The position numbers were made by a program, and so were the translations under genes. Below the pieces are notes generated by a model. That model ran no database searches. It saw only the letters and a list, made by a program, of their open reading frames with translations, and was not told where the DNA came from. Source: a virus (taxonomy: Duplodnaviria > Heunggongvirae > Uroviricota > Caudoviricetes). From it: a DNA stretch of 26,417 nt. Location of the stretch: IMG/VR virus record IMGVR_UViG_2703718784_000007, one strand, 5' to 3'. Positions 301 to 4,332 of the stretch are shown in pieces; within the stretch, counting starts at the first letter, position 1, and every line of letters begins with the position of its first letter.

Positions 301-729
301 ATGTATTGCCGTGCTGTACCGGTTCTTGTTTTGATATTAGCCAGTCTGACAACTGGCTGCACAAAAGATGTATCGACAAATAATTATGATGCTTCGCTGC
401 ATCACTCAGATAAATTAATAAAGTCGCAAAATTTGAGCTTATCGGAACGTACCCCTGATGCCAGTGAAGAAATCCGGCAGTATGCCATTCAGGTCAGGGA
501 AGCCATAGAAGAACAGTTAAAGGATGCGGGTAAGTATTCAGGAAAAGAGTGTTCACTGAGAATGTATATGGCCCCGAATGGTCTTCTGCTACAGGTTAAA
601 AGAGAAAGCGGTGATCCCGATTTATGTCGTGAAGCGATGAATGCAGTAAAGAATGCTGATATACCATCACCACCGTCTTCAGGAGTATATAAAGCATTTA
701 GAAATGGCGTGCTGGATTTTAAACTCTGA
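301..729 (+). CDS. Lipoprotein with TolA C-terminal (domain III)-like domain; candidate moron
   Basis: ATG at 301 with GGAG upstream; N-terminal signal peptide ending in lipobox-like LTTGC; C-terminal ~90 aa closely resembles E. coli TolA domain III as recalled (GKxCxLR..APxGxLL..GDPxLC...IPxPPS...LDFK). Not verified by database search. Confidence 0.8.
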   Translation: MYCRAVPVLVLILASLTTGCTKDVSTNNYDASLHHSDKLIKSQNLSLSERTPDASEEIRQYAIQVREAIEEQLKDAGKYSGKECSLRMYMAPNGLLLQVKRESGDPDLCREAMNAVKNADIPSPPSSGVYKAFRNGVLDFKL

Positions 730-795: not shown

Positions 796-1042
796 TGTTA
801 AATTCCTCACAATTCAGTAAGTTGACAGTTGCCTGTCAGACTGGGCATTTGTTAAAAAAATTTCGCATGGTGAATCCCCCTGTGCGGAGGGGCGACTGGT
901 GAACGGTATGATCTCTTTGATGATCGTAAGCGAGAATACGCGGGTTTAGTGTCACCGGGCTGAACTCACCGGGAGGCACCCGGCACCATGCTCATGGTGA
1001 TACAGAAATGCGGCTTCAGCCCCTCTCTGGAGGGGCTTTCTT
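796..1042 (+). repeat. Copy A of triplicated structured non-coding module (conserved blocks tgttaaat..cctcacaattcag / gcatggtgaatccccctgtgcggaggggc / ctgaactcaccgggaggcacccggcaccatgc, ending in terminator)
   Basis: Direct comparison with copies B and C; long-range 8-bp helix 865-872/984-991 encloses hairpins 877-892 and 969-983. Confidence 0.6.
1018..1042 (+). terminator. Intrinsic terminator-like hairpin (agcccctc-tctg-gaggggct followed by ttctt)
   Basis: Perfect 8-bp GC-rich stem, 4-nt loop, T-rich tail. Confidence 0.65.
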
Positions 1043-1047
1043 ATGGA

Positions 1048-1115
1048 CAAAAAAGCCCGCGCTGGGAGACGCGGGCGGCAAGGAATAAACAATAAAACGT
1101 GAAGTAATATTTCAG
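1048..1115 (-). ncRNA. Candidate minus-strand small RNA, copy A (about 70 nt)
   Basis: Minus-strand sigma70-like promoter: -35 TTGCGC (plus 1147-1152), 18-bp spacer, -10 TATTAT (plus 1123-1128). Minus-strand intrinsic terminator (stem gcccgcg/cgcgggc at plus 1055-1076, followed by a T-run on the minus strand = plus A-run 1048-1054). Same architecture conserved in copy C. Confidence 0.3.
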
Positions 1116-1477
1116 CTGGCGAATAATACCCCATAGTAATCACTCTGCGCAACTGCGCGGCCTTTTTCGAATTGCGGGCTGTAGTCTCCCTTCTGCCGGG
1201 TGGCCTGGTTGCAGATTTCTTCATGGGGTAGGGTTCGGCAGTTAAAGCAGCGATGGCGCTGGGGCGTCGTGCTATAGGCGTTGAGCTGGATACCGGGCGT
1301 TTTGAACAGACTGCGCAGGCAATCAGGGATATATTTATCGGTAGCTGTTTGCAGAAGTAATCTCCCAAAATTCCATTTTTGGAATGCAGTGGTTGTTGCT
1401 GTAGTGTGGGCAAGTTCTGGAACTGGCTTCGTCCATTGCAGATGATTGTTAGCTGGATATCAGTTACCTCATGGAAA

Positions 1478-1711
1478 TGTTAAATGACTCACAATTCGGT
1501 TGATGGACTATTGTCTGATTGATGGAAGTCTTGTAAAAACGAGCCAGCATAGTGAATCCCCCTGTGCGGAGGGGCGTCTGACATGGTCTCCATAGCGATG
1601 GTCACAATACGCAGATTCAGTAGTCAGGCTGAATCTACCGGGAGGCACCCGGCACTATGCTGCTTATGGTGTATACACAGCGATCGGCCCCTCTCCTGAG
1701 GGGCTTTTTTT
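1478..1711 (+). repeat. Copy B of triplicated structured non-coding module
   Basis: Same conserved blocks as copy A; long-range helix 1547-1554/1653-1660 (gcatagtg/cactatgc) carries a compensatory change relative to A and C; hairpins 1559-1574 and 1638-1652. Confidence 0.6.
1687..1711 (+). terminator. Intrinsic terminator (gcccctc-tcct-gaggggc followed by ttttttt)
   Basis: 7-bp GC-rich stem, 4-nt loop, T7 run. Confidence 0.8.
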
Positions 1712-1730
1712 GTGCGGGAAAAGGCTGTGT

Positions 1731-1974
1731 TGTTAAATGTTAAATCCCTCACAGTTCAGATGGTTGATGCTTGCCTGTCTGACGGGGAGTTGTTAAAAAA
1801 GTTCTGCATGGTGAATCCCCCTGAGCGGAGGGGCATATCAGCGCAGGTGTTTCTACTCTATCCTTTCTGTGCGGGTTCAGGTGCTGATACTGAACTCACC
1901 GGGAGGCACCCGGCACCATGTAGTATACAGAGATTAGGCATACATCCAGGCTCCTCATTGCAGGAGCCTTTTTA
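1731..1974 (+). repeat. Copy C of triplicated structured non-coding module
   Basis: Same conserved blocks; helix 1806-1813/1914-1921 (one G-U wobble at its end). Confidence 0.6.
1948..1974 (+). terminator. Intrinsic terminator (aggctcct-cattgc-aggagcct followed by tttt)
   Basis: 8-bp stem, 6-nt loop, T-run. Confidence 0.7.
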
Positions 1975-1979
1975 CATGC

Positions 1980-2047
1980 AAAAAAACCGCTCCAGGGAAG
2001 AGCGGTTGGCAAGGAATAAATAACAAAACGTGAAGTAATTTATTCAG
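1980..2047 (-). ncRNA. Candidate minus-strand small RNA, copy C (about 70 nt)
   Basis: Minus-strand promoter -35 TTGCGC (plus 2079-2084), 18-bp spacer, -10 TATTAT (plus 2055-2060); minus-strand terminator stem aaccgctc/gagcggtt (plus 1985-2007) followed by T-run on the minus strand. Paralogous to the unit at 1048-1115. Confidence 0.3.
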
Positions 2048-2197
2048 CGCCCTAATAATACCTTACAGTAATCACATTGCGCAACTGTATGTAAGGGCGT
2101 ATTTCTTTTTTGCGGGCTGTTTTGTGTGACTTTTGTGTTTCCGGAGGTCAGCCCGAGCCTTCTCTGACTCAGAACATTATTCCGGCCGGGAGGATTC

Positions 2198-4186
2198 ATG
2201 GCATTTAAACACTACGATGTGGTCAGGGCGGCATCGCCGTCAGACCTTGCTGAACGACTGACACAAAAACTGAAGGAGGGGTGGCAGCCATTTGGCAGCC
2301 CTGTCGCCATCACGCCTTATACCCTGATGCAGGCTATTGCGGCGGAAGGTGATGTCACCACGCCGGTGCTGGTTAAACCATCGGGTGACGGGGAGACGGC
2401 TATCAGCAAGACCGGTGAGCCTGAATATTATTATGTTGTCGCGCTGGCGGGTCAGTCAAATGGTATGTCTTTTGGAGAGGGAGTACCGTTACCTGATTCT
2501 TATGATCGCCCTGATCCGAGAATTAAGCAGCTTGCCCGTCGACGTACCGTTACGCCGCGAGGCGTTCCCTGCACCTATAACGATGTTATTCCGGCAGATC
2601 ATTGTCTTCATGATGTGATGGATATGAGTGAAAAAAATCACCCCCGGGCAGACCTCAATAAAGGTCAGTATGGTTGTGTGGGTCAGGGACTGCATATTGC
2701 CAAAAAACTGTTACCGTTTATACCGGCGAATGCGGGCATTCTTCTGGTTCCATGCTGTCGTGGAGGCTCGGGAGTGACTACAGGTAATGAGGGAACATTT
2801 AACGCCTCTTCCGGGGCAAGCCCTGATTCTGCATTGTGGGGAGCTGATAAGCCGCTGTACCAGGATCTGTTAAGTCGCACGAAAGTCGCGCTGGCTAAAA
2901 ATCCCGGAAATATCCTGCTGGCGGTAATCTGGATGCAGGGGGAGAGTGATCTGGCTTCAGGAAGCCAGAGTCATAATGCTCTTTTTACTGGCATGGTACA
3001 GAAATTCCGTGCTGACATCGCTGATATGTCAGGGCAGTGCGTGGGGGGCTCGGCACTGAGCGTTCCGTGGGTTTGTGGCGATACGACGCATTACTGGAAA
3101 GAAAAATATGCTGCGTCTTATGAAACTGTATACGGTGGATATAAAAATAAGGCAGCGCAGAATATTCACTTTGTCCCTTTCATGGTTGATGGAAGCGGGG
3201 TAAATGTGCAGACCAATAATCCGGCAGAAGATCCTGATATTGAAGGTATTGGCTACTCCGGTTCGAAGTGGCGAGACAGTTCTGTCAGCTGGACGTCAGG
3301 TGACAGGGCAAGCCATTTCGGTTCATGGGCGCGGCGTGGAATTATTTCAGATCGTCTTGCAACCGCAATTCTGACCCACGCAGGCAAATACCCGGCGTTT
3401 ATCACCGGGCGGTCAGAAACGGTAGTTGCAGGAGATGAACGGGAAAACGTTACATCCGGAAATTTCCCGTCACCTGTGGAGGATGCTGCGTTATCACAGG
3501 ATGCACCTCAGAGAAGAACGGTTGTTGAGTATAATTCAGCTGTTGAGAAAGACAGCCTCGGTGGTAACTGGGCAGCCCAGCACTGGAATGCCCGGGACGG
3601 TGTCGCCGAGTTTGTTAATGATGAAAGCAGACAGGTGCTGAAGATTAAGCAGCATGAGGGCAAACAGGGACCGTGGATGCTGTCAGCAGGAGTATCAGCT
3701 GAAGATGCCCGTGCTCTGTATGAAAATGGCGGTGAAATAAAACTTGAATTCAGGTTGCCGGATGGTACCCAGGTTGCAGATGACAAATACCTCTTTGGTG
3801 TTTACCTGCCAGTTTCCGGGTGGACTCAGGAAGGCAACGGCAGCAATATGATGGCCTCCTTTTTCACTCAGACAAAAGCCAGTAACCTGGATGTCATGTA
3901 TCACGGTAAAACACAGCCTAATACAAAAATTGAGTCATTCGGTGCGGTTAATAACAACTGGCACACGCTTGTCTTTAAATATAAAGGAGGCGGCAATCAC
4001 CAGGTTATTCCGGTACTTGACGGAGAAGAGAAAACAGGTTTTGCACTGAAAGAAGGTCCGGTCACTTCTGCCTTTACGGTGGATAACATCACAGTGACAG
4101 GTATCAGCGCAAATCAGGGAAAATCTTATCCTGTCATGTTCCGCAGTATCATGGTAAGCATTAACCAGGCAACCTCTTCATCATAA
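2198..4186 (+). CDS. nanS: Prophage sialate O-acetylesterase (NanS-p family; SGNH/SASA esterase domain plus C-terminal domains)
   Basis: 662-aa ORF with GGGAGGA RBS; GQSNG-type catalytic serine motif (VALAGQSNGMSFGEG); size and position immediately upstream of the lysis genes as in Stx-type lambdoid prophages. Confidence 0.85.
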   Translation: MAFKHYDVVRAASPSDLAERLTQKLKEGWQPFGSPVAITPYTLMQAIAAEGDVTTPVLVKPSGDGETAISKTGEPEYYYVVALAGQSNGMSFGEGVPLPDSYDRPDPRIKQLARRRTVTPRGVPCTYNDVIPADHCLHDVMDMSEKNHPRADLNKGQYGCVGQGLHIAKKLLPFIPANAGILLVPCCRGGSGVTTGNEGTFNASSGASPDSALWGADKPLYQDLLSRTKVALAKNPGNILLAVIWMQGESDLASGSQSHNALFTGMVQKFRADIADMSGQCVGGSALSVPWVCGDTTHYWKEKYAASYETVYGGYKNKAAQNIHFVPFMVDGSGVNVQTNNPAEDPDIEGIGYSGSKWRDSSVSWTSGDRASHFGSWARRGIISDRLATAILTHAGKYPAFITGRSETVVAGDERENVTSGNFPSPVEDAALSQDAPQRRTVVEYNSAVEKDSLGGNWAAQHWNARDGVAEFVNDESRQVLKIKQHEGKQGPWMLSAGVSAEDARALYENGGEIKLEFRLPDGTQVADDKYLFGVYLPVSGWTQEGNGSNMMASFFTQTKASNLDVMYHGKTQPNTKIESFGAVNNNWHTLVFKYKGGGNHQVIPVLDGEEKTGFALKEGPVTSAFTVDNITVTGISANQGKSYPVMFRSIMVSINQATSSS

Positions 4187-4260
4187 AACAAAAAAACGCC
4201 AGCGCAGAGGAGAACGGGAGGATAAGTCTGACGCTGGCGGAGGAGTATCCTCATGGAGAA

Positions 4261-4292
4261 CGATATGTAACACATATCGCCTTTCTTTTATT
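4261..4292 (+). terminator. Terminator-like hairpin after nanS-p (cgatatgt-aac-acatatcg followed by cctttcttttatt)
   Basis: Perfect 8-bp stem, AT-rich, followed by a T-rich tract. Confidence 0.45.
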
Positions 4293-4332
4293 GAAAAGTC
4301 ATCGCCATTGTCAACCATAACGGTAAGAAACT

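Follow-up and report, generated by a model that had tools for sequence, protein, structure and literature searches.

The stretch of DNA analysed here, called the window throughout, is the 26,417 nucleotides (nt) of IMG/VR virus record IMGVR_UViG_2703718784_000007 (Caudoviricetes), and our subject is a group of three related units on the same strand within positions 796-1974. The units share the direct-repeat families D1, D2, D4 and D7, and their start-to-start distances are about 682 and 260 nt. Comparison with complete genomes found the prophage that carries the window, 100% identical, in the chromosomes of several human E. coli isolates. In the identical locus of NZ_CP075852 the annotated order is RusA, Q, a small open reading frame (ORF), a DNA methyltransferase gene, tRNA-Ile, tRNA-Arg, a TolA-like gene, the three units, an SASA/NanS-p esterase gene, DUF1378, DUF826, holin, lysozyme and Rz. 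The context is that of the late region of a Stx-phage-like lambdoid prophage in which a TolA-like gene replaces the Shiga toxin (stx) genes, with the units in the moron region between Q and the lysis genes. Each copy of the triplicated module is a small RNA (sRNA) gene of STnc100 (RF02076), a family that is already catalogued, and the three stand in tandem.

An Rfam scan of the whole window gave exactly three hits, all to STnc100 and each covering model positions 1-206 of 206, with scores of 121-172 bits as against the curated gathering score of 47 bits for RF02076. In all three units a closing helix encloses a CCCC/GGGG hairpin, a central arm and a CCGGG/CCCGG hairpin, and an intrinsic terminator follows. 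In the lines below the units are named A to C and the helices P1 (the closing helix) to P5; the second score given with each Rfam hit is that on R1, our own model of the core.

796-864, plus strand: upstream block of unit A, with TGTTAAAT at 796-803, a hairpin TGACAG/CTGTCA at 823-840 and the proximal promoter candidate
865-991, plus strand: core of unit A, with P1 at 865-872/984-991 (GCATGGTG/CACCATGC), the P2 hairpin at 876-892 (CCCC..GGGG), P3 at 892-894/939-941, a pseudoknot of 896-902 with 952-958, a variable segment at about 903-938, P4 at 942-949/960-967 and P5 at 969-973/979-983 (CCGGG-AGGCA-CCCGG, 969-983)
992-1045, plus strand: linker (992-1017) and terminator of unit A, the latter from the terminator scan (stem 1018-1037 plus T-tract)
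836-1048, plus strand: STnc100 hit of unit A, 172.3 bits (94.1 bits on R1)
1478-1713, plus strand: unit B, with TGTTAAAT at 1478-1485, the core at 1547-1660 (variable insert at about 1580-1608) and the terminator at 1686-1705 plus T-tract; P1 at 1547-1554/1653-1660 (GCATAGTG/CACTATGC), a double change of G:C to A:T
1518-1713, plus strand: STnc100 hit of unit B, 120.8 bits (85.4 bits on R1)
1731-1975, plus strand: unit C, with a duplicated TGTTAAAT at 1731-1745, the core at 1806-1921 (variable insert at about 1836-1872) and the terminator at 1948-1969 plus T-tract; P1 at 1806-1813/1914-1921 (GCATGGTG/CACCATGT), with a terminal G.U
1778-1979, plus strand: STnc100 hit of unit C, 164.1 bits (93.9 bits on R1)

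Among the three units identity is 75-94% in the scaffold, 21-46% in the variable insert and 46-52% in the linker plus terminator. The original prediction, made from the DNA sequence of the window, described a tandem array, and this holds in that all three units are on one strand; they are not strictly head-to-tail, as about 420 nt separate A and B and contain a minus-strand sRNA candidate and a methylase remnant. The other structural features that it reported, namely the common blocks, an 8-nt closing helix and two conserved hairpins in every copy and a terminator after each, are all found at the coordinates above.

The main evidence on the fold comes from homologues. These were collected with a pattern in which two invariant blocks were fixed (AATCCCCC, 65-95 nt, CCGGGAGGCACCCGG) and P1 was left free, which gave at least 120 viral loci and at least 120 species-genome loci; the homologue counts that follow are among the matches listed. 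The collection includes Salmonella, Klebsiella, Raoultella, Kosakonia, Enterobacter, Citrobacter and Kluyvera, and also Cedecea, Superficieibacter, Pantoea, Erwinia, Rosenbergiella and Rahnella. The blocks, of 8 and 15 nt, are unchanged in at least 120 species genomes of Enterobacteriaceae, Erwiniaceae and Yersiniaceae, an invariance that is partly accounted for by the collection itself, which required the exact pattern. P1, the 8 nt that flank the pattern on each side, has more than 100 sequence versions among 238 unique units, and in nearly all versions 7-8 of the 8 positions pair. The change of G:C to A:T on both sides of P1 in unit B, which had been taken as a sign of selection for the pairing, is borne out and generalises to these many versions.

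R1 was built from 99 representatives with pairwise identities of at most 80%, and the resulting alignment has 150 sequences. For about 145 distinct homologues 97.3% of 3609 alignment cells are paired, as against 40-46% with slid partners, and changes on both sides are seen in 20 of the 25 pairs; none of 500 shuffles reached the observed values. G.U pairs are common and A.C pairs rare in the alignment, which indicates that selection acts on the plus-strand RNA. There are also copies that diverge within the blocks treated as invariant, and these have compensatory changes, with CACG/CGTG, CCTAC/GTAGG and CTCC/GGAG in P2 and CCGTG/CACGG and TCGGG/CCCGA in P5. Selection for the pairing, as proposed originally, is thus strongly supported, and the option of tandem structured sRNAs was the right one. 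Minimum-free-energy folds of the isolated cores give the same helices, with z-scores of -3.5 (A), -2.6 (B) and -2.4 (C).

Two elements of the core are missing from the consensus line of STnc100 in Rfam. One is the 3-base-pair (bp) helix P3, in which the third pair is G-C, A-U, C-G and U-A in 49, 32, 21 and 20 sequences respectively. The other is the pseudoknot, formed by the segment directly 3' of P3 with the P4 loop (CTGGTGA/TCACCGG in A, GTCTGAC/GTCAGGC in B and TATCAGCGC/GTGCTGATA in C). Over 145 units the best pseudoknot duplex has a mean of 6.30 bp, whereas mismatched partners give 4.83 and the largest mean in 200 shuffles is 5.09; there are 101 distinct duplexes. The comparison suggests that the fold is more elaborate than the Rfam consensus, with an extra helix and a pseudoknot, and the core is modelled as a five-way junction closed by P1 and locked by the pseudoknot. 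Its topology (P1, 3 nt, a hairpin of 4-5 bp with an 8-nt loop, two central arms, a 5-bp hairpin and P1 again) resembles the cloverleaf of a class II tRNA. The window as a whole is negative for tRNA and tmRNA in ARAGORN and in the corresponding Rfam models. A conserved small ORF was also considered, but the ATG that A and C have inside P1 is lacking in B and in most homologues, in which P1 reads differently.

Members of the family have been studied elsewhere. STnc100 is annotated downstream of stx2B in Stx2 phages (PMC12370729; PMC12711010), and is there EcOnc27/sRNA103, which was recovered in O157 Sakai by Hfq crosslinking (PMC4104026; review PMC7873438). EcOnc27 gives Northern bands of about 235/247 nt, of which the 247-nt form is destabilised or lost without Hfq, and its peak in Hfq-CRAC (crosslinking and analysis of cDNA), mapped on Sakai, covers the last part of P5, the 3' strand of P1, the linker and the terminator (PMC4104026 supplement). 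The Northern probes of EcOnc05 and EcOnc06, from O157 prophages, match STnc100-type units, and these are therefore members too. In EDL933 there are 11 copies, with RNA-seq reads for all and Northern confirmation for one (PMC5331693), and overexpression of sRNA103 raised the fimZ and espA transcripts. PasD1/2 of enteropathogenic E. coli (EPEC) are Hfq-dependent with partners known from RIL-seq (RNA interactions captured by ligation, then sequenced; PMC8550237), and are structural relatives of STnc100 according to a 2026 preprint, a relationship that our own comparison bears out. Of the sRNA families annotated in bacterial genomes STnc100 is among the most frequent (PMC9029176), and in one machine-learning study variants in or just upstream of it were among the strongest genomic predictors of haemolytic uraemic syndrome (PMC12711010). 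The units had earlier been put down as of unknown function, and it remains true that no mechanism is established for STnc100, but the family was already curated and has experimentally detected members.

In the case of the promoters, each unit has a proximal candidate of the sigma-70 type:

829-858, plus strand: candidate of unit A, TTGCCT (829-834), 18 nt, TAAAAA (853-858), which would start transcription at the closing helix
1511-1539, plus strand: candidate of unit B, TTGTCT (1511-1516), 17 nt, TAAAAA (1534-1539)
1771-1799, plus strand: candidate of unit C, TTGCCT (1771-1776), 17 nt, TAAAAA (1794-1799)

The mapped 5' end of PasD2 is at the start of P1, behind TTGACT-18-TAAAAA, a layout that the window units share, and unrelated phages have a good sigma-70 promoter that stops a few nt short of P1 (TTGCTT-17-TATAAT in an Enterobacterales prophage, L235). 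The sequence TGTTAAAT occurs only four times in the 26-kilobase (kb) window, every time about 65 nt 5' of a P1, and may serve as the extended -10 of a long isoform (about 235 nt) like that of EcOnc27. Our first guess at a promoter, TTGACA at 822-827, was dropped, being half of the leader hairpin and at a place where the consensus scan calls nothing. Every unit is followed by an intrinsic-terminator-like site on the plus strand, at the positions given above, and the 3-kb region has 12 such sites as against 2.8 +/- 1.7 in shuffles. Of 226 homologues, 150 carry an intrinsic terminator at a distance of 20-50 nt after P1 and 76 have none within 130 nt; the terminator sequences are unrelated.

In the same Enterobacterales prophage (L235 1300-1930, minus strand) the interval from Q to the lysis genes contains a row of small transcription units, which are, in order, a pR'-type promoter with a terminator about 100 nt on, a second promoter-terminator pair, an STnc100 gene with a consensus promoter, and tRNA-Thr.

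The core is also found in other arrangements in other genera. There are arrays of 3-6 cores in Pantoea (including plasmid pAPP145_2) and Superficieibacter (L148 946-1992, L141 3112-4489, L180 4134-5930, L147 6323-7018). In Pantoea the spacing can be as short as 12 nt, and the plasmid has as many as six copies within about 1 kb; since 12 nt leaves no space for a promoter or terminator, co-transcribed multi-domain RNAs are implied. In some prophages of the Pantoea group a core lies, like the leading member of a tRNA operon, 1-5 nt 5' of tRNA-Met (then tRNA-Thr and tRNA-Gly) or of tRNA-Gly (L191 4789-5053, L217 447-790, L220 3637-3835), and the 3' end of such a core would come from RNase P cleavage.

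A further subfamily is chromosomal and not in prophages. It has P1 GTGTGGTG/CACCACAC and lies about 180-250 nt upstream of a gene for a KdgM-family porin, on the same strand. It was found in 16-18 species loci (L128, L139, L140, L142, L145, L149, L153, L162, L172 and others) in Kosakonia, Klebsiella, Raoultella and Enterobacter, with a gene for a periplasmic pectate lyase downstream and a divergent gene for a LuxR-type regulator upstream. From its position the core could be a cis-acting leader in these loci. Clustering of the neighbouring genes over the 120 species loci listed gave no protein family common to all; phage late genes (Q, holin, lysozyme) form one group and kdgM, pectate lyase and LuxR-type regulator genes another.

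We suggest that the window has three separate trans-acting, Hfq-associated STnc100 sRNA genes, each with its own promoter and terminator, and would put the probability of this at about 0.75. Most likely each unit is transcribed from its own sigma-70 promoter to give an RNA of about 180 nt, possibly with the longer isoform as well; in the RNA the core of about 115-127 nt would be joined to the intrinsic terminator by a single-stranded linker of 25 nt. By analogy with the characterised members, the U-tailed terminator and the linker would bind Hfq and the RNAs would act in trans on host and prophage mRNAs. If they act by base-pairing the three copies probably have different targets, as inserts, linkers and leaders differ on a shared scaffold. 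In the lysogen the terminators would insulate the units from one another, and after induction RNA polymerase modified by Q would be expected to read through them to the lysis genes. Such read-through by Q-modified polymerase is the established mode of lambdoid late transcription, and the earlier suggestion that it applies here is reasonable.

There are several points that weigh against this explanation. The evidence for expression comes from homologues and not from this strain or array, the consensus promoter scan of the region calls none of the candidate promoter sites, and TAAAAA makes a weak proximal -10. No STnc100 member has a validated target or seed, and the seed proposed for PasD has MEME E-values of 2.4e3 and 6.5, which are not significant. 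A pseudoknotted junction of 115 nt with near-invariant loops exceeds the needs of a base-pairing sRNA, and the same core occurs in other genera without a terminator, abutting tRNA genes or other cores, which suggests that it has a function of its own beyond base-pairing.

These last points lead to the most serious of the alternatives, that the core is itself the functional structured RNA, be it a module that binds a protein or ligand, a tRNA-like decoy or a processing substrate, and that base-pairing with Hfq is secondary or absent; the tandem copies would then raise the dose or show variant inserts on a common scaffold. We consider this possible, though clearly the less likely explanation. 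It would account well for a five-helix junction with a covarying pseudoknot and a topology like that of class II tRNA, for blocks unchanged across three families in hairpins whose stems covary where they vary at all, and for the 12-nt spacers, the cores 1-5 nt from tRNA-Met or tRNA-Gly, the kdgM-type subfamily and the third of homologues that have no nearby terminator. However the tRNA and tmRNA detectors were negative and there is no T-loop or CCA-end signature, the species loci listed have no neighbouring protein gene common to all contexts, the published members bind Hfq and depend on it, and the invariance of the blocks owes something to the way in which the homologues were collected. Should the self-contained domain hold, as one recognised by a protein, enzyme or ligand, it would explain the near-invariant loops, the Pantoea arrays, the cores at the head of tRNA clusters and those at kdgM-type porin loci, and the triple array would be three variant inserts on one scaffold; the family would then merit structural and protein-partner studies, and not target searches alone.

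It is unlikely that the units act mainly in cis, as a terminator or insulator array in the late operon that would halt transcription from moron promoters in the lysogen and permit Q-dependent read-through after induction, with the RNAs as by-products. Such an array would fit the three plus-strand terminators and the conserved hairpin at 1145-1160 between Q and the lysis genes, the convergent back-to-back terminators at moron boundaries and the published 'dyad' position, which lies between pR' and the lysis genes and recurs in eight or more Sakai prophages, but about 30 nt suffices for a terminator, and a 115-nt core that covaries across genera would be left unexplained; moreover the terminator sequences are not conserved, one in three homologues lacks a terminator within 130 nt, and chromosomal, non-phage contexts are known for some copies. 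The related option of a late-operon leader, raised in the original prediction together with Q read-through, does not stand, as the array is about 2.9 kb downstream of Q, past the methylase gene, two tRNA genes and the moron, and has promoter-like elements of its own, and for the same reason we rejected a late-leader RNA of the lambda 6S or StxS type, which would start at pR' directly after Q and run to tR'; in the related prophage L235 the pR'-proximal unit is separate from, and upstream of, the STnc100 gene. Finally, a repeat at the DNA level, whether ERIC-like or a recombination 'linker', that has no selected RNA product is effectively refuted as the sole explanation. Units at moron boundaries, and an array that looks like a product of recombination, with a duplicated methylase 3' end and units like those of different Stx phages, would suit it, as would the block GTGAATCCCC, with which the ERIC core likewise begins. 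Yet a search of the window for the ERIC core GTGAATCCCCAGGAGCTTACAT finds nothing even when 3 mismatches are allowed, only its first 10 nt being common, and the compensatory changes, the tolerance of G.U on one strand only, which points to selection at the RNA level, and the detection of homologues as discrete RNAs all speak against such a repeat; the ERIC option is not supported.

The feature is one already known, and the window by itself adds little: its triple array is rare and belongs to a non-Stx prophage from human isolates of the type of Shiga toxin-producing E. coli. STnc100 was matched in 2697 of 5426 complete E. coli genomes, and the whole three-unit arrangement in only 9. The remaining interest is in that rarity, in the refined fold, and in an abundant family, adjacent to stx2, for which no target, seed or mechanism is established.

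With regard to known systems, the closest are EcOnc27/sRNA103 of the Stx2 phages Sp5 and 933W, and EcOnc05/06, which have the same helices, the same strand relative to the late operon and the same position from moron to esterase or lysis genes as the window units. The Stx2_95 unit is 100% identical to unit A in the P1-P3 block and 95% in the linker plus terminator. The window differs from EcOnc27-type loci in having three copies and not one, with a gene for a TolA-like lipoprotein and not stx as the upstream moron, and the variable inserts are only 22-50% identical to those of EcOnc27-type units.

PasD1 and PasD2 (EcOnc13) of EPEC E2348/69 share P1, P2, P3, the pseudoknot and P4, then a linker and terminator, and are likewise downstream of Q and upstream of an esterase gene. 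However PasD2 (L245 1658-1829) lacks P5 and scores 33 bits on R1, as against 85-94 for the window units, and the PasD linker has the proposed seed UGUGAG, which is in none of the three window linkers. On these grounds of sequence we treat PasD as a relative of the window units and not as the same member.

OmrA/OmrB, PrrF1/2 and Qrr1-5 are likewise neighbouring sRNA paralogues with a promoter and terminator for every gene, in which one part is conserved and another divergent. Those RNAs are short and simply structured, whereas the window units have a large pseudoknotted junction, and the window array was apparently assembled by phage recombination and not by local duplication.

Further candidates were rejected. 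IpeX of DLP12 is in a similar place beside the nmpC porin moron, but the core model finds nothing in the DLP12 region of MG1655 at E<=1. A riboswitch, in which a conserved aptamer in the leader of a regulated gene would control a terminator by conserved, mutually exclusive pairing, does not agree with terminators that are unrelated across homologues and absent within 130 nt from 76 of 226, with the units' own candidate promoters, or with the unrelated downstream genes. A riboswitch-like switch, with the 3' strand of P1 pairing to a downstream ATGGTG and a P2-like terminator, could be drawn only for A and B, neither element being present in C or in Sakai.

Units A and C, but not B, each face a minus-strand sRNA candidate:

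1049-1122, minus strand: candidate 1, facing unit A, with a terminator at 1076-1055 and then a T-run
1981-2054, minus strand: candidate 2, facing unit C and paralogous to candidate 1, with another terminator stem (2007-1985); repeat families D3 and D5

Both have a conserved promoter candidate, TTGCGC-18-TATTAT, and both align with the EPEC RIL-seq sRNA candidate E2348C_1409.E2348C_1408.IGR; phage Stx2_95 has, downstream of stx2, a partner identical to candidate 1. The layout of facing minus-strand genes with back-to-back terminators is shared with the 'dyads' EcOnc27/AsxR and EcOnc06/AgvB of Tree et al. (2014), but the partners there are AsxR and AgvB, and those in the window are of the EPEC-candidate class. 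AsxR and AgvB are recognised by a match to RF02703 or RF02702, which have a common conserved 3' region of about 42 nt, and neither model has a hit at E<=10 in the window or in Stx2_95, as compared with 88.1 bits for AsxR in the Sakai control. A weak minus-strand hit to OmrA-B (E 0.4 in the window, 0.013 in L242) is probably spurious, since the seed-like GGUAUUAUU is in the presumed -10 of the partner and the remainder is terminator. After candidate 1 there is a further plus-strand terminator-like hairpin at 1145-1170 (CTGCGCAACTGCGCGG, then CCTTTTT), which is conserved in Sakai Sp5 and Stx2_95 (L242 2843-2868, L243 4711-4736), with a related copy after unit C at about 2077-2100.

The protein-coding neighbours of the array are as follows:

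301-729, plus strand: TolA-like lipoprotein gene, annotated as 'cell envelope integrity protein TolA', 3' of the phage tRNA-Ile and tRNA-Arg
about 1196-1360, plus strand: pseudogene between units A and B, the 3' remnant of a gene for a DNA methyltransferase, as annotated in the identical locus by the PGAP pipeline
2198-4186: SASA/NanS-p esterase gene, after the three-unit array

The TolA-like gene fills the moron slot that is held by stx2AB in Stx phages; in Sakai Sp5 and phage Stx2_95 the order is stx2AB, a single STnc100 unit and the esterase gene. The ORFs at 952-1413 (minus) and 1712-2023 (plus) had been judged unlikely to be genes, and indeed neither is annotated in the identical RefSeq locus, which has only the methyltransferase pseudogene fragment there. 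A homologue of PasA 3' of the esterase gene (4186-4295, minus strand) was considered, but the alignment with PasA of E2348/69 is weak and not convincing. Directly after the esterase gene, at the place of PasA in EPEC E2348/69, there is a strong minus-strand hairpin with a T-run at 4190-4250.

The methylase remnant has 88-90% identity to phage DNA methylase genes, and in NZ_CP075852 an intact copy lies 5' of the tRNA genes, just beyond the edge of the window. This duplication of the methylase 3' end suggests an origin of the array in recombination between phages whose late regions differed. Among 50,697 phage records nothing matches unit B at 85% identity or above. Unit C has a linker and terminator 84% identical to those of Sakai EcOnc27, and unit A with the following 140 nt is nearly the same as the Stx2_95 unit downstream of stx2B.

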